NCBI GenBank assembly: GCA_965248925.1
Contig: CBDFLE010000006.1
Span: 4,256,001-4,320,000, forward strand
Reading direction: 5' to 3'
Length of the DNA stretch: 64,000 nt
DNA from: Candidatus Multivoradales bacterium
GTDB taxonomy: Bacteria; Acidobacteriota; Thermoanaerobaculia; Multivoradales; J023
Numbering within the stretch: the first letter of the stretch is position 1; each line of letters starts with the position of its first letter. Shown here one piece after another: positions 39,863 through 45,695 of the stretch. Under the pieces are notes generated by a model, which made no database searches, was not told where the DNA came from, and was given only the letters and a program-made list of their open reading frames with translations. Position numbers and translations under genes: made by a program.

Positions 39863-41164
39863 TTACGACGGTAGCCTGAGAATCGCTGCACAGCCCCCGT
39901 CGGGTCGATTGCGCAGCTCTAAGGAGCCGCCGTGAGCCTCGGCGATCTGGCGGCAGAGTACCAGTCCTATGCCAGTTCCTTCCGGTTTGGTGGTGAAAAA
40001 AGGCACGAAAAGATTCTCGGTGCTAGACAGGCCAGGGCCTCGGTCAAGCACTTGCAACTGCAAATGGGCACCTTTCAGGCGCCAGACGACCGCCACTTCA
40101 CCTGCTGTTTCTGCTGCTGCTTCGACCGCATTCTTGACCAGGTTGATCAGCAGCTGTTCCAGTTGATCCGGGTCCGCTTGCAGGGCCAGGTCCGGGCCGC
40201 CGTCGAGACGTACTTGGCGGTTGGGTTCGAGTGCCAAGACCCGGTTCACCAAGGAAGCGACGGACGTGCGGCGGAGATGCGGCGAAGGCAATCTGGCAAG
40301 GCGCGAGTAGGCGGCGACGAAGCGATTCAGCGCTTCACTGCGCTGGGCGATGATGCGCAGGCCGCGCTGGGTGTCTTCGCGCCAGTCTGTCGGCAACTGA
40401 GCTCGGCGTAGCAGCGAAGCCAGGGTGGAGGCAGTGGACTTGATCGGTGCGAGGGAGTTGTTGAGTTCGTGGCTGAGTACTCGGATCAGTTTCTGCCAGG
40501 CTTGCCGCTCCTCGTCGCGCAACGCTTTCGACAGATCGGTCAATACCACCAGCTGGTGTGGCAGCCCACCTTCGCGAAAAGCGCCGCGACGGCTCTGCCA
40601 ACGGCCGGAGCCGCCGGCAAAGGAGCGCTCAAAGGTGCGCACCGCCTCGCCGGTCAGGCAGTCGTCGAGCCCGAGTTCTTGAGCGGTGTGATTTAGCAGC
40701 TGCTCGCGGCGGCGAGCCAGCAAGCGCTCACCGGCGCGGTTGACCAACCGTAGCACCTGTCCCTCGTCGAAGGTGAACAGGGCTACGTCGACCTCGCTGA
40801 TCACCCGTTCGAGCAGTTGGGCCGCGTCGACCGCGCGGAAGCGCTGGCGGCGCAGGATGTCGCCGAGATGATTGACCTCGACCATCACCTCGCCGAGCGC
40901 GTCGCGCGGCCCAGGACTGTTGGCGCGGATCGAATAGTCGCCTTCGCGCAGGGCTTCGATCAGGTTGGCCAGGGTTCGCAGTGGTTTGATGGTGCGCTCG
41001 CGGGCGGCCAGCGCGCAGCCCAACCAACAGCTGCCGACCACCAACGCCACGGTCCAGACCAGCCGCGGTGGATAGGAGCCTGACCACAGCAAGTAGGTCG
41101 AGACCACCGCTCCTGGCAAGCCGGCGCCCAAGGCGAGAAGGAAAATGCGTCTTTGGTGGGTCAT
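39863..41164 (-). CDS. Sensor histidine kinase (HAMP/PAS)
   Basis: 2 TM, SHELNNSL H-box, NLVKNA, DRGPG, FFTTK, GIGL. Confidence 0.92.
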   Translation of the reverse strand: MTHQRRIFLLALGAGLPGAVVSTYLLWSGSYPPRLVWTVALVVGSCWLGCALAARERTIKPLRTLANLIEALREGDYSIRANSPGPRDALGEVMVEVNHLGDILRRQRFRAVDAAQLLERVISEVDVALFTFDEGQVLRLVNRAGERLLARRREQLLNHTAQELGLDDCLTGEAVRTFERSFAGGSGRWQSRRGAFREGGLPHQLVVLTDLSKALRDEERQAWQKLIRVLSHELNNSLAPIKSTASTLASLLRRAQLPTDWREDTQRGLRIIAQRSEALNRFVAAYSRLARLPSPHLRRTSVASLVNRVLALEPNRQVRLDGGPDLALQADPDQLEQLLINLVKNAVEAAAETAGEVAVVWRLKGAHLQLQVLDRGPGLSSTENLFVPFFTTKPEGTGIGLVLCRQIAEAHGGSLELRNRPDGGCAAILRLPS

Positions 41165-42576
41165 CGGCTCGCCGACAGGCCGAGCTTGTCTAACCGCCGG
41201 TAAAGCGCGCTGCGGCTCAAGCCGAGAGCATGGGCGGCCTCGGTAACGTTGCCCTCGGTGCGCTCCAGACCGCGTTCGATCAGCACCCGTTCGGCTTCCT
41301 CGAGGGTCATCTCGTCGAGTCGTTTGGTCTCCGACGCAGCGGTCAAGCCGAGATCGGCGGACTCGATCTGGGGGCCGGCGGCCATCAACACCGCTCGCTC
41401 CAGCACATGGCTGAGCTCACGAACATTCCCCGGCCAGGAATGCTCTCGCAGCTGGGCCAAGGCGCCGGCGGCGAGTTGCCGGATAGGTTGGCGGTAGCGT
41501 TGGGCGTGCTGGGCCAGGAAATGCTCCGCCAGCGGCCGCAGGTCGGCACTTCGCTCGCGCAGCGGTGGCAGGTGGATCTGCACCGTCTTGAGGCGGAAAA
41601 GCAAATCGCGCCGGAAGCGGTCAGCCGCCACTTCGGCCTCGATGTCGGCATTGGTGGCGGCGATGATCCGGGCGTCGGAACGCAGCGTCTTGGAGGAGCC
41701 GACGCGCTCGAATTCGCCACTCTCCAACACCCGCAACAATCGGGTCTGCTGCGATGGTCGGATGTTGGCGACCTCGTCGAGAAATAGCGTTCCGCCGCTG
41801 GCCAGCTCGAAGCGACCCACCCGGTCACTCTTGGCGTCGGTGAAGGCGCCGCGAACATGGCCGAAGAGTTCGCTCTCGAACACCGTCTCCGCCAACCCCC
41901 CCAGGTTGACTGTGATCAGCGGACCCGTTCGTCGGCGGGAGAGCTGATGCAGGGCTTTCGCCAGCAAGCTCTTGCCGGTGCCGTTCTCGCCGGTCAGCAG
42001 TACGTTGGCGTCGGTAGGGCCGATACGCTCAAGAAGTTCCAGGACTGGCGCCATGGCGGCCGAGCCGGCGATCAGGTCAGGATGAGGAGCGCCGCGTAGC
42101 AGGCGGTTCTCTGCTTCCAGGCGGACGCCGCGGCGTAGGGTGCGGGCGACCTCGGTCTGGATACGTAGGATGCTGACCAGACGCTCGTTGTCCCACGGTT
42201 TTTCAACCAGGTCGCGAGCGCCACGACGTATTGCCTCGACCGCCAGACCGACGCTGGCCCAGGCGGTCATTACCACCACCGGGAGTTCTTGATCGAGCGC
42301 TTGAATGCGGTCGAGCAAGTGCAGCCCCTCTTCGCCAGAGGTGGTGTCGCGAGTGTAGTTAAGGTCGATCAGCACGACATCGAACTCGACTTCGCCTATG
42401 CGCTCGATCAGGGCGTTGGGAGAGGCCACGGTGACTATGGAGAAGCCTTCGGTCTTGAGCAGCAAGCGGAGCGACTCGCGGATGTCGTCTTGATCGTCGG
42501 CCACCAACACCCGCGGCGCAAGGGTGGATCGTCGACTGCTGCTGGCGGCGCTCTTGGTGGGGTTGGGCTGGTTCAT
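41161..42576 (-). CDS. Sigma54-dependent response regulator (NtrC family)
   Basis: Receiver domain, GENGTGKS, GAFTDA, LFLDEV, WPGNVREL, Fis HTH. Confidence 0.93.
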   Translation of the reverse strand: MNQPNPTKSAASSSRRSTLAPRVLVADDQDDIRESLRLLLKTEGFSIVTVASPNALIERIGEVEFDVVLIDLNYTRDTTSGEEGLHLLDRIQALDQELPVVVMTAWASVGLAVEAIRRGARDLVEKPWDNERLVSILRIQTEVARTLRRGVRLEAENRLLRGAPHPDLIAGSAAMAPVLELLERIGPTDANVLLTGENGTGKSLLAKALHQLSRRRTGPLITVNLGGLAETVFESELFGHVRGAFTDAKSDRVGRFELASGGTLFLDEVANIRPSQQTRLLRVLESGEFERVGSSKTLRSDARIIAATNADIEAEVAADRFRRDLLFRLKTVQIHLPPLRERSADLRPLAEHFLAQHAQRYRQPIRQLAAGALAQLREHSWPGNVRELSHVLERAVLMAAGPQIESADLGLTAASETKRLDEMTLEEAERVLIERGLERTEGNVTEAAHALGLSRSALYRRLDKLGLSASR

Positions 42577-42637
42577 TGCGGGCTCCTGCGGCGTTGTTCG
42601 CCGCGGCCCATTCTACAGCCGTGGAGCGGTGGAGGGA

Positions 42638-42666
42638 GGACCGACCAACCTGGAGCTGGTCGGTCC
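42638..42666 (-). terminator. GC-rich hairpin downstream of ncRNA candidate B (terminator or processing stem)
   Basis: GGACCGACCA-N9-TGGTCGGTCC; no U-tract. Confidence 0.4.
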
Positions 42667-42699
42667 CTATTCTGAGGAAATGTGGAAGCTTTGTTGTAG

Positions 42700-42873
42700 G
42701 CCGGCAGCGGCTGGGCAGCGGTGGAGTCCCGTGAAGGCCATCTCTAAGATGATGCTCCCGGCGGTGCCTTGATCGTCGCTCGTGATGGCTGACTTGATGC
42801 GGTGCGAGGATCGAGGCTTCCTGATGTCGTCTGGCCTTCACGGAACTCAACCGCTACCGGTGCCGCTGACAGA
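42700..42873 (-). ncRNA. Candidate sigma54-dependent structured ncRNA B
   Basis: Arms 42832-42859 and 42713-42740 pair (24 WC + 2 GU of 28), 91-nt loop, consensus sigma54 promoter upstream; paralog of A. Confidence 0.65.
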
Positions 42874-42883
42874 AGTGGTTTAG

Positions 42884-42899
42884 AGCAAGCGCGGTGCCA
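42884..42899 (-). promoter_or_regulatory. Sigma54 (-24/-12) promoter B
   Basis: TGGCAC-CGCGC-TTGCT, exact consensus. Confidence 0.85.
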
Positions 42900-43017
42900 G
42901 GCTCTACGAGCGAGTAGCAGGTTTTTCCAAGGATTCTTGTATTTGCTGTAGCAAAAGGGGTTGTAGCTTTGTCTGATTTTCGGAGAGCAGCCTGACCTGG
43001 TCTGAAGCCGGCTTTTC

Positions 43018-43078
43018 TGTCCGCCAGCGGTCAGTCAGGTGACCCGCAGCGGTCAACCGCTGACCGCTCGCGAGGTCA
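43018..43078. promoter_or_regulatory. Enhancer (UAS) array for promoter B
   Basis: TGTCCG-N4-CGGTCA, TGACCC-N4-CGGTCA, TGACCG-..-GGTCA at 21-22 bp spacing. Confidence 0.65.
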
Positions 43079-43304
43079 AGGCCAGGGCGGTTGCAGAAGG
43101 CAGCGGCTGTGGAGAAAGTAGGTGGCGAGCGGAAAGGGAGAGGCGAGAAGTAGCCGGGGATGGCGACCGAGAGATCGCTAGCGGTAGACTCCGCGAAGAT
43201 CAGTTAATAGAGGATGGACCGGCCGCCTGAGCTGACGTGGTGTGCTGACTTAGAGGATGCTCAAGCGGCGCTGTTGAAAAGATCTTCGCGGAGCCCTGTC
43301 GCCG

Positions 43305-43555
43305 GCAGTGCTCGTTTGACCGGCAGCGACGGAGATCCGTGAAGGTCGTCCCGATGTCGATGTCCGCTCGCGAGGTCGCCGCCTTGGTGCGCTGACGTGA
43401 TGATAGGCGACTCTCGCGATCTACCGTGGTACTCGGTGGTGAGCCGGGTTCGCCGGGCCGCCCTTCGTGGTGCAGGACTGGATGTCTAGGTCGACCCGTG
43501 GCAGTTTGCTGCGAGACCTTCAAGGAACTCCGTCGCTACTGGTTCCGTTCACTCT
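43305..43555 (-). ncRNA. Candidate sigma54-dependent structured ncRNA A
   Basis: Arms 43515-43542 and 43320-43347 pair (24 WC + 1 GU of 28), 167-nt loop, consensus sigma54 promoter upstream. Confidence 0.65.
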
Positions 43556-43565
43556 CCAGAACTAA

Positions 43566-43581
43566 TGCAAGCTAGATGCCA
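43566..43581 (-). promoter_or_regulatory. Sigma54 (-24/-12) promoter A
   Basis: TGGCAT-CTAGC-TTGCA, followed upstream by an AT-rich tract (43610-43670). Confidence 0.85.
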
Positions 43582-43683
43582 GCTTGGCGGACATTGCCAT
43601 GTCAGCCTGATATTTTGCTGTAAACAATTGAAACTAAGACATTTACTGAATTGTTCAGAAAAAAATAACCTGGCTTGTACTGG

Positions 43684-43739
43684 TGACCGTGGGCGGTCGC
43701 TGCTCGCTAGCGGACAGCCTGGGTGACCGTTAGCGGACA
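43684..43739. promoter_or_regulatory. Enhancer (UAS) array for promoter A
   Basis: TGACCG-N4-CGGTCG, TGCTCG-N4-CGGACA, TGACCG-N4-CGGACA. Confidence 0.65.
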
Positions 43740-43778
43740 GCGGCGGGCGGGCGGTGGTTGAACCGGGACTAGGGAAGC

Positions 43779-45695
43779 TCAGCTAGGGCCGGGGAGCAGG
43801 CCGAAGCGTTCCATGCGGCGGCGCAGCTTCTGTCTCGATATGGCGAGCAGCTTAGCTGCTTGCACCTGGTTGCCGTCGCAGCGCCGTAGCGCCTCGCGTA
43901 CCGCGCGTTGTTCGAGATCTTCTAGCTCGAGGGAGTCCAGTGCTAGTAGTTCTGGACGCGGCTCGCCGTCGCTGGCCGCAGGCGGTGAGGCAGACAGGTC
44001 GAGGGCGCGCGCCGCAGAATCTCCCAGGACGGGGCGAGGGGCGTTCTCGAGCACTGCTTTCGACAGCATCGAAGAGTCGATGGCGGCACCGTCGTGACAG
44101 AGATAGACCAGGCGGCGGACCTCGTTTTCGAGTTCGCGGACATTGCCAGGCCAAGGGAAGTCCACCAGCTGGCGCAGAGCACGCACGGTCAGGCCGCGCA
44201 CCCGCTTGCCGAGGGAACGCGAGCAATCGCGCAGAAAATGCTCGACCAACGCTGGGATGTCCTCGGGCCGATCACCGAGGGGCGGAACGTCGAGCACCCA
44301 CCCGGCCAGGCGGTAGTAGAGGTCGGCGCGAAAGCTGCCGGCCTCAATGCGCTTGGCCAGTTCTTGGTTGGTGGCGGCTAGGACCCGCACATCGATCTTG
44401 ATCGGTCGCATGCCGAGGGGGGTGACCTCTTTCTCCTGCAAGGCTCGCAGCAGCTTGGCCTGAAGACCGGCCGACATGTCGCCGATCTCATCGAGAAACA
44501 GGGTGCCGCCGTCGGCTTCTTGGAAGCGGCCACGGCGTTTTCTGACCCCGGAGGCAACCCCTTCGCCGATGCCGAAAAGCTCTGATTCGAGCAGTTCGGC
44601 AGGAATGGCGGCGCAATTGATAGCCACGAAGGGCTGTTGCCGACGGGGCGAAGAGCGGTGCAGAATCTGCGCCAGATACTCCTTGCCGACGCCGGTGTCG
44701 CCGATGATCAGCACCGGCAGGTCGCCGCGGGCCAGGCTCTCCATCAGGCGGTAAATCCGGCGCATCGCCGCCGACTGTCCGAAGACGAATCCCGCCGGCA
44801 CCACCAGGCTCGGAAAACCGGTGTTCACCGTCGGCTGGTGAACTTCGCCGGGCTGTGGCCGGAAGCGGTCCACAAGCCTCACCACCAGGCGTAGCAGGGG
44901 TTCGCTCTCGCTGCGACCGGCGAAGCTGCCCCACAATGCCAAGGCCAGGGGGGCGGCGTCTTGAGGGGTTAGCAAGACCAGGCTGAGGGGCGCTCCGGCG
45001 GTCGGGTTGAGCAATTCGAAAGCGATAGCATCGGCCTTGGTGGTGGCGTCGGCGAAAGCATGCGGCAGCGCCTCTTGCAGGCTTTCCATGGCGTCGTCGT
45101 CGACCTGGCCGGCGGCGGCGAGGACGATAGGCCGCTCCTCGGCCGGTAGCTCTAGCAGACAGGTGCCACGCAGTTGTAACTCGCTGATCAGCAGCCGCAC
45201 AACGGCGCTGAAATGGCCATCCGGACCCTCCGGCATCTCGGTCACCAATGCTTCGACCAGTTGCAGCCAATGTCGGGTGAGGGCGTCGGCTATGCTGCTG
45301 GTGACCAGCGGTGTCTCGCGTCGCAGTACCGCGGAACTCCGGTCGAGGGGTGGGTAGTCAAGAGCGATGGCGAGTTCGGCGTCTTCGCTGTCCAGCTCTT
45401 CAAGAGTCAGCTCGACAGGGCCAAAACGCAGCTGATCGCCCGGTCGGGCGGTAGCCTGCTCGATGCGTCGCTCATTGAGGTAGGTGCCGTTCTTGCTGCC
45501 CAGATCTTCGACCTGCAACTGGTCGATGCCGAGTGTCAGCCGGGCATGCTGCCTGGAGACGCCAGCGGCACTGAGCACGATTTCGTTCGACGGCAAGCTG
45601 CCGACGCCGTTGGTTGAGCCGAGGACGAAAGAATGCTCACTATCTTGCACTAGGCCGCGCAGGCAGTAGCTGATCTGTGAGGTGGTTGTCGCCAT
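43779..45695 (-). CDS. FHA domain sigma54-interacting transcriptional regulator
   Basis: FHA (VSRQHA..DLGSKNGT), AAA+ GDTGVGKE, LFLDEI, RADLYYRL, WPGNVREL, Fis HTH; GVASGV in place of GAFTGA. Confidence 0.9.
   Translation of the reverse strand: MATTTSQISYCLRGLVQDSEHSFVLGSTNGVGSLPSNEIVLSAAGVSRQHARLTLGIDQLQVEDLGSKNGTYLNERRIEQATARPGDQLRFGPVELTLEELDSEDAELAIALDYPPLDRSSAVLRRETPLVTSSIADALTRHWLQLVEALVTEMPEGPDGHFSAVVRLLISELQLRGTCLLELPAEERPIVLAAAGQVDDDAMESLQEALPHAFADATTKADAIAFELLNPTAGAPLSLVLLTPQDAAPLALALWGSFAGRSESEPLLRLVVRLVDRFRPQPGEVHQPTVNTGFPSLVVPAGFVFGQSAAMRRIYRLMESLARGDLPVLIIGDTGVGKEYLAQILHRSSPRRQQPFVAINCAAIPAELLESELFGIGEGVASGVRKRRGRFQEADGGTLFLDEIGDMSAGLQAKLLRALQEKEVTPLGMRPIKIDVRVLAATNQELAKRIEAGSFRADLYYRLAGWVLDVPPLGDRPEDIPALVEHFLRDCSRSLGKRVRGLTVRALRQLVDFPWPGNVRELENEVRRLVYLCHDGAAIDSSMLSKAVLENAPRPVLGDSAARALDLSASPPAASDGEPRPELLALDSLELEDLEQRAVREALRRCDGNQVQAAKLLAISRQKLRRRMERFGLLPGPS

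Follow-up and report, generated by a model that had tools for sequence, protein, structure and literature searches.

A sigma-54-associated family of structured small RNAs in one acidobacterial lineage, and the CAYC words of two divergent members

What is the function of two long hairpins, rich in short repeated words, that lie between two genes for sigma-54 activators? The question is raised by the window, as we call the whole stretch of 64,000 nucleotides (nt) analysed here, from Candidatus Multivoradales bacterium (GTDB lineage Bacteria; Acidobacteriota; Thermoanaerobaculia; Multivoradales; J023; NCBI GenBank assembly GCA_965248925.1, contig CBDFLE010000006.1, positions 4,256,001 to 4,320,000 of the forward strand). 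On its minus strand, a gap of 1.2 kb (42577-43778) holds both hairpin loops, with the gene of an FHA activator on one side and those of an NtrC-type regulator and a kinase on the other. A first reading, made from the sequence alone, had noted CA(U/C)C(A) words, here CAYC(A), in the loops of both candidate RNAs and had taken them for multi-copy binding sites of an RNA-binding protein, in other words for a protein sponge. We find that the two hairpins are divergent members of a previously undescribed small RNA (sRNA) family, so far known from one bacterial family, whose members are preceded by sigma-54 promoters and enhancer palindromes. The many-copy CAYC pattern is not shared by their relatives.

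A family of structured RNAs behind sigma-54 promoters

RNA A (43318..43556) and RNA B (42700..42874), both on the minus strand like every other feature of the window described below, are long hairpins. The covariance model R1, built from nine sequences, matches them at 56 bits (E 1.6e-15) and 103.8 bits (E 1.1e-28), respectively; as A and B were among the nine, their own scores are not independent. Fold z-scores versus shuffles are -5.2 for A plus its downstream module and -7.6 for B, and the two units can be aligned in promoter, stem arms and upstream palindromes. Model, alignment and folds thus agree that the two candidate hairpin RNAs are real and related. The module downstream of A, termed A' (~43190..43300), is a truncated third copy with no promoter of its own. 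Its stem (GGCUCCGCGAAGAUC...GAUCUUCGCGGAGUC) and loop are of the same kind as those of A, in shorter form, and R1 matches it weakly (43148-43317; 9.8 bits, E 0.008 in 1.3 kb). The loop of A' contains CAUCCUCUA twice and GUCAGC twice (as GTCAGC, 2 versus 0.12 expected).

A sigma-54 (-24/-12) promoter, detected by pattern scan, stands about 10 nt ahead of each long hairpin: TGGCATCTAGCTTGCA for A (43566..43581) and TGGCACCGCGCTTGCT for B (42884..42899). Further upstream are the enhancers (upstream activating sequences). Enhancer A (43684..43739) consists of three 16-nt palindromes, TGTCCGCTAACGGTCA, TGTCCGCTAGCGAGCA and CGACCGCCCACGGTCA, at offsets -183, -160 and -143 from the RNA start, while a palindrome scan places TGACCGCTGCGGGTCA and TGACCGCTGGCGGACA in enhancer B (43018..43055). 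Both sets agree with the layout by which we define the family, two or three palindromes at 100-290 nt ahead of the RNA start. The same arrangement recurs throughout the family. In 29/29 members, a GG-N10-GC promoter is found whose end lies 9-12 nt ahead of the model start, versus 0.34 expected in shuffles. Palindromes of the form TG(T/A)CCG-N4-CGG(T/A)CA, allowing at most 2 mismatches within 300 nt upstream of the promoter region, precede 28/29 members, with one to three each; this amounts to 69 sites, compared with 1.5 in shuffles (max 5). The sole member without palindromes has only 76 nt of contig upstream. Within the window genome, a good sigma-54 promoter combined with at least two palindromes occurs only at A, at B and at C6:3473852, the last of which we take for chance.

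Between the palindromes and each promoter lies an A+T-rich stretch (43590-43680 and 42905-42990), with G+C content falling to ~25% around 43612-43664. These stretches include TTTCAATTGTTTA, a putative IHF-type bending site by its resemblance to the consensus. A spurious mir-2833 match from the Rfam scan also falls in such a stretch.

Several searches for relatives by sequence or known family were negative. Rfam 15 gave no relevant match between positions 42400 and 43900 at E values up to 10, and BLAST of the 911-nt region against 40 relatives returned only short chance matches. In a search of 200 genomes of the order for the stem pattern GTAGCGNNNGAGTTCCNTGAAGG, allowing 2 mismatches, the listed matches outside the window's own genome were unlike the RNA, several of them being near-identical strings that recur in distant genera; the 17 loci with this pattern in metagenome contigs yielded no closer relatives of A or B, and 0/17 match R1. 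Around response-regulator orthologues from other phyla (~60% identity), the 52 of 80 loci checked showed stray sigma-54-like matches at most and no RNA.

Relatives were found through synteny. Thirteen further genomes of the taxonomic family encode orthologues of the FHA activator (52-56% identity), and at 7/13 of these loci the promoter pattern identifies a sigma-54 promoter followed by a related RNA. The syntenic RNAs start with GAGAGCGGGCUCCG..AGCGACGGGG and end with CCCCGUCGCU.CGGAGCC and a U-run, just before the regulator gene. A search with R1 then yields 29 RNAs in 15/24 genomes of the taxonomic family, covering 5/10 genera, with up to four copies per genome; the window's genus (g1) is represented in this set by the window genome only. 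Under stricter filters, R1 finds the RNA in 0/129 genomes from 11 other families of the order. In the closing stem, 90.4% of cells are paired and 13/15 pairs show double changes. None of 500 shuffles is as good, and slid controls are only 32-46% paired. The common layout is a long closing stem around a G-poor, C/A/U-rich interior that contains an inner hairpin with an apical loop of 22-28 nt, the whole RNA measuring 120-240 nt. In the five primary-locus RNAs of genus g5, read by eye, the apical loop is near-constant and its stem varies; loop conservation is seen across the five genomes of g5 and the eight of genus g10. Rfam scans of five homologue loci at E values up to 1 recovered no family, save a sub-threshold match to Acido-Lenti-1 near one of them.

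That match (RF01687; L150:2041-2084, plus strand, genome G004) scores 34.2 bits versus a gathering threshold of 37 (E 1.3e-4) and has the activator gene on one side and the homologous sRNA's enhancer on the other. The window shows no such match.

At 11 loci including the window, the RNA sits between the activator and regulator genes, directly upstream of the regulator and in the same orientation; at the 10 primary loci found with R1, the homologous RNA gene adjoins the activator gene. The remaining 18/29 copies are dispersed, away from activator and regulator genes. Their neighbours encode a trypsin-like protease, a pseudouridine synthase, a T2SSE ATPase, a methyltransferase or BamB-like propellers, and the downstream gene is often convergent. 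A U-run follows the stem in 27/27 non-window copies, including the primary-locus copies of other genomes, where it precedes the regulator gene. Given that the dispersed copies lie beside unrelated and often convergent genes, we conclude that they are stand-alone genes with their own terminators. The first bases of the transcript form a 5' box, GAGAGCGGGCUCCG, that is near-invariant across genera in the 27 non-window members (alignment A4, columns 5-18). This conservation goes far beyond the needs of pairing, and the box may be a recognition site for a protein or RNase, or a promoter-proximal DNA element.

We consider it established that these RNAs are an activator-dependent, sigma-54-transcribed structured family with G-poor interiors and conserved apical loops, whose paralogues share one enhancer motif. 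Transcription itself, and which activator acts, we infer. A literature search restricted to open-access papers found none on sigma-54-dependent sRNAs in Acidobacteria.

The window copies are divergent, odd members of this family. In place of the 5' box, A has GAGAGUGAACGGAACCAG and B has UUCUGUCAGCGGCACCGG, a departure on which this judgement rests. Terminator scan and alignment show no U-run or intrinsic terminator after the closing stem of either A or B, and none was found on the minus strand anywhere from 43556 to the regulator start. With no terminator of its own, A is possibly co-transcribed with A', and transcription of B may continue into the regulator operon. The interior of A is also large, at 167 nt compared with ~40-100 nt in most other members as measured by stem-walk.

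CAYC words in the window copies and in their relatives

Every word on which the sponge proposal drew is present in loops A and B on the minus strand, in its place. Loop A (43348..43514) is an interior of 167 nt with eight CAYC and, in its inner hairpin, the apical loop UAUCAUCACGUCAGCGCACCAA; loop B (42740..42832) has seven CAYC in 93 nt, and the apical loop ACCGCAUCAAGUCAGCCAUCACGA (motif counts and folds). Compared with 2000 dinucleotide-preserving shuffles, CAYC occurs 8 times in loop A versus 3.57±1.51 (P 0.008) and 7 times in loop B versus 3.16±1.28 (P 0.005). For the two loops together, neither the 15 CAYC (6.86±1.95 expected, an excess of ~2.2-fold) nor the 8 CAYCA (2.17±1.32 expected) is reached by any of the 2000 shuffles. 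The density is one CAYC per 13-21 nt in the loops, 3-5-fold that of the window's minus strand as a whole (one per 68 nt). The longer form CAYCAMG, a motif chosen post hoc, is present three times in loop A, twice in loop B and once in loop A', versus 0.19, 0.14 and 0.05 expected. Blocks that the two loops had been said to share are likewise borne out, GTCAGC with 2 copies versus 0.15 (P 0.008) and CAAGG with 2 versus 0.27 (P 0.026). According to the partition function, a thermodynamic prediction, CAYC has a mean probability of being unpaired of 0.71 in A versus 0.41 for all positions, and of 0.66 versus 0.40 in B.

The expected enrichment over shuffles is therefore present, but it shrinks to a modest one after correction for the choice of motif. 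By z-score (4.36), CAYC ranks second among 768 four-letter motifs, and 22.3% of 1000 shuffled loop pairs reach an equal z. Given that CAYC was picked after looking and that so many shuffles are as strong, the excess is real but modest, and not compelling on the window alone. Local duplications such as GACAUCGACAUC contribute part of it.

For the homologues, the word counts cover the middle of each of the 27 non-window RNAs (bases 39 to -42, an approximate cut; 2017 nt in all). Here CAYC occurs 43 times versus 35.9±4.8 (z 1.5, P 0.095), which is no enrichment. It is present in 22/27 homologues at ~1.6 per RNA, compared with 7-8 in the window RNAs; hence, the many-copy pattern is no trait of the family. 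CAYCA is slightly more frequent than expected (17 versus 10.6±3.1, P 0.038). The most enriched word is UCCUC, with 14 copies versus 4.2±1.9 (z 5.1), followed by CCUC (27 versus 16.9) and GUCAG (10 versus 4.3). GGA (12 versus 26.0±3.7) and GGAG (1 versus 7.2), on the other hand, are depleted, so that C-rich stretches stay single-stranded.

Longer versions of the word do recur among the relatives, once or twice per RNA. ACAYC is found 23 times, in 17/27 homologues, versus 7.7 expected; GUCAG-N-CAYC 6 times, in 6/27 homologues, versus 0.08; and CAUCA[AC]G 6 times versus 0.9, all three being post hoc motifs. GUCAGCC, CACCAAG, CAUCACG and UCCUCCA are among the top 7-mers outside the stem when 1 mismatch is allowed, with 16-18 of 30 sequences versus 6-8 expected and a shuffle maximum of 18. 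Given that these motifs were chosen after inspection and that the sequences are related, the figures overstate significance. Furthermore, R1 places two words of A and B, GACAUC on the 5' side of the interior and UCAGC in the apical loop, in register with identical words in relatives. Thus, parts of the loop elements singled out in the sequence-only reading (GACAUC, UCAGC, ACAYC) do recur across the family, while their repetition as many CAYC copies does not.

What the loops may do

Two known systems resemble this architecture. In Myxococcus xanthus, pxr adjoins an NtrC-like regulator gene; its sigma-54 promoter is predicted, and an enhancer-binding region lies upstream (PMC5684412). Paralogous Pxr copies are reported from some lineages (PMC5568312). 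Pxr with PxrR/PxrK is like the window RNAs in its sigma-54 promoter, enhancer region, NtrC-like regulator neighbour and paralogues. It differs in having three stem-loops where the window RNAs have one long closing stem with a large interior; it belongs to a different phylum, and it shows no match in sequence or structure (Rfam scans were negative). The window locus, unlike that of Pxr, is also flanked by a second activator, of the FHA type. In Vibrio, two activators can feed one qrr promoter, that of qrr1 (PMC10162802). The LuxO-Qrr1-5 system shares with the present family several paralogous sRNA genes with one enhancer motif and a sigma-54 promoter, as well as a two-component regulator whose main output is sRNAs; RpoN and Hfq are both encoded in the window genome.

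Qrr RNAs are ~100 nt long and carry one near-identical seed in all paralogues. In the window family, by contrast, the RNAs are 120-240 nt long and the loops differ much among paralogues, and Rfam gave no match to Qrr (RF00378). By analogy, the RNA family would work like the activator-controlled sRNAs of the Qrr or Pxr type, to which it is unrelated in sequence and shape. Because the architecture fits LuxO-Qrr and PxrR-Pxr, we favour trans-acting pairing through the loops.

Under this preferred reading, an enhancer-binding protein would recognize TG(T/A)CCG-N4-CGG(T/A)CA some 120-180 bp upstream of the promoters (140-185 nt from the RNA starts) and fire the sigma-54 promoters, giving rise in the window to the tandem array of A, truncated A' and B, with CAYC(A) words in the unpaired interior of the array RNAs. 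The G-poor loops would serve as seeds for pairing with mRNAs: CAYC complements G+AUG/GUG, and UCCUC, being anti-Shine-Dalgarno-like, complements the Shine-Dalgarno core. In the manner of LuxO-Qrr or PxrR-Pxr, a signal received by the kinase and regulator would thereby be turned into post-transcriptional control. The many CAYC words of the window would be a lineage-specific elaboration, made by longer loops and local duplications such as GACAUCGACAUC. Its ancestral starting point would be one element or two, with the 5' junction contributing ACAYC and the apical loop GUCAG(N)CAYC / CAYCAMG. Taken as a whole, this is the best reading we can offer of the locus, and one that stands about an even chance of being right.

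Several observations weigh against it. Among 4194 crudely called translation starts, 8-10-mers complementary to the loops are not enriched relative to the inside of genes and to 60 shuffles; the best z is 1.9 (apical loop of B, k=10), and although several of the 13 matches in that set overlap start codons of the form GAUGGCUGA(C), this is suggestive only. Duplex energies between the loops and the starts of the three neighbouring genes are no better than those of shuffles, and exact or near complements of the loop cores in the window genome include no standout target. Similarity in k-mers to the 16S anti-Shine-Dalgarno tail GAUCACCUCCUUU is weak (P 0.014-0.016 at k=4, not significant at k=5 and k=6). 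A typical pairing sRNA needs fewer than the seven to eight copies of one short word that A and B each carry. The public sequencing runs listed include four runs of one sample that contain the DNA, and no RNA run among them. Finally, A and B are without the 5' box GAGAGCGGGCUCCG and the U-tail, both of them invariant among the other 27 members, and may therefore act differently from the rest of the family; they could, for instance, serve the regulator operon as a long leader.

What stands on firm ground here is the RNA family with its enhancer code; the CAYC sponge is the weaker part. If 7-8 unpaired CAYC(A) words per RNA served to titrate an RNA-binding protein, their density and excess over shuffles and window background, their predicted accessibility and the (post hoc) recurrence of CAYCAMG in A, B and A' would be accounted for, and the tandem triplication would add sites. 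There is also a precedent for an activator driving a sponge from a sigma-54 promoter, as CrcZ of Pseudomonas is sigma-54- and CbrB-dependent. CrcZ/CrcY and CsrB/RsmZ resemble the window RNAs in having short repeated words in unpaired regions, CrcZ/CrcY in the sigma-54 promoter as well, but the words themselves are different. Loops A and B contain GGA twice each and loop A' not at all, which is no more than shuffles give, and CsrA (PF02599) had no match in the 96.9%-complete window genome; AANAANAA and triple-ARN runs each number 0 in the three loops. To our knowledge, no global RNA-binding protein of bacteria reads CAYC. Moreover, the many-copy pattern of the window is not kept in homologues. 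Given that the relatives are without it, we rate RNA-RNA pairing as more likely than a protein sponge. The family, made of dispersed paralogues with one enhancer motif and a sigma-54 promoter, fits sRNAs of the Qrr/Pxr type at least as well. With words heterogeneous in context, no cognate protein indicated and CAYC unenriched among homologues, the step from repeated words to a sponge is unsupported, and we regard a sponge as rather improbable. It is unlikely, though well worth keeping in mind, that the CAYC excess does nothing in itself and is a by-product of C/A-rich, G-poor composition, small duplications and the shared descent of A and B. The share of shuffles with an equally strong 4-mer and the counts in homologues both agree with this, and A and B are paralogues that would hold the block CAUCA(C/A)GUCAGC in common by descent. 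The dinucleotide shuffles, however, control for composition, and still the loops hold 15 copies versus 6.9; in addition, longer versions recur across genera at matching positions, and the words avoid paired parts.

A different possibility is that A, A' and B together are one long structured 5' leader of the regulator/kinase operon, with two sigma-54 promoters, serving autoregulation or attenuation. The absence from A and B of the U-tail seen in the other 27 members, the lack of any minus-strand intrinsic terminator between 43556 and the regulator start, and the position of the RNA directly upstream of the regulator at the 11 loci are all as such a leader would have them. For the family, however, the dispersed majority with U-tails of their own and unrelated genes downstream speaks against it, as do the U-runs ahead of the regulator gene in other genomes, and the conserved loop sequences would be left unexplained. 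We think a leader of this kind has only a small chance of being the answer. It would be bolder, and we consider it quite improbable, to suppose that, in one lineage, an ancestral pairing sRNA was triplicated and was deprived of terminator and 5' box, while its loops turned into arrays of 7-8 exposed CAYC(A). Produced at the command of a sigma-54 activator, such an array would be a multivalent decoy that captures either an RNA-binding protein or, simultaneously, the start-codon regions of numerous mRNAs.

The regulatory RNAs of Acidobacteriota are almost unstudied, and the locus offers a circuit that can be tested: from kinase/regulator and FHA-type activator to enhancer palindrome, to sigma-54 promoter, to one to four sRNAs per genome. 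Such a circuit would be analogous to LuxO-Qrr and PxrR-Pxr and have evolved independently of them. By means of R1 and the enhancer motif, its regulon can be mapped in every genome of the family. The window copies, in tandem, without terminator and with word-rich loops, are a natural variant that could show an sRNA in the course of changing its mode of action.

Flanking genes and minor features

On the 5' side of RNA A, the adjoining gene (43779..45695) encodes a 638-amino-acid (aa) activator with an FHA domain, a sigma-54 interaction (AAA+) domain and a Fis-type helix-turn-helix (HTH). On the other side of the gap, 41161..42576 encodes an NtrC-type response regulator of 471 aa (receiver, sigma-54 AAA+ and HTH_8), and its stop codon is overlapped by the gene of a 433-aa histidine kinase (39863..41164; HisKA and HATPase_c). 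These assignments are from Pfam; none of the three proteins has an NCBIfam equivalog at cut-off. For the N-terminal 300 aa of the activator, the closest relative among 5.8 billion proteins is 42% identical.

FHA-gated sigma-54 activators are numerous within this bacterial family. The window genome contains 16 matches to the 638-aa activator at E <= 1e-60. Those listed include several full-length FHA-type paralogues (e.g., 48% identity at C6:1727435-1729276), and the remaining ones align only from residue ~250-310 on, that is, over the AAA+ part.

Three identical short elements of the same genome, at C5:1073343, C6:4643706 and C6:2421472, probably represent an insertion sequence. They carry an 89-aa open reading frame starting with TTGATGGCTGATTTGATC, and 14/18 positions of its start region are complementary to the apical loop of RNA B, which may be chance.

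Between RNA B and the regulator gene, the fold also shows a G+C-rich hairpin of 14 bp (42637..42667), without a U-run and followed by UCCCUCC, which the terminator scan did not call. It lies 60 nt ahead of the response-regulator start and, judging by this predicted fold, could be a processing or attenuation element of the regulator operon.

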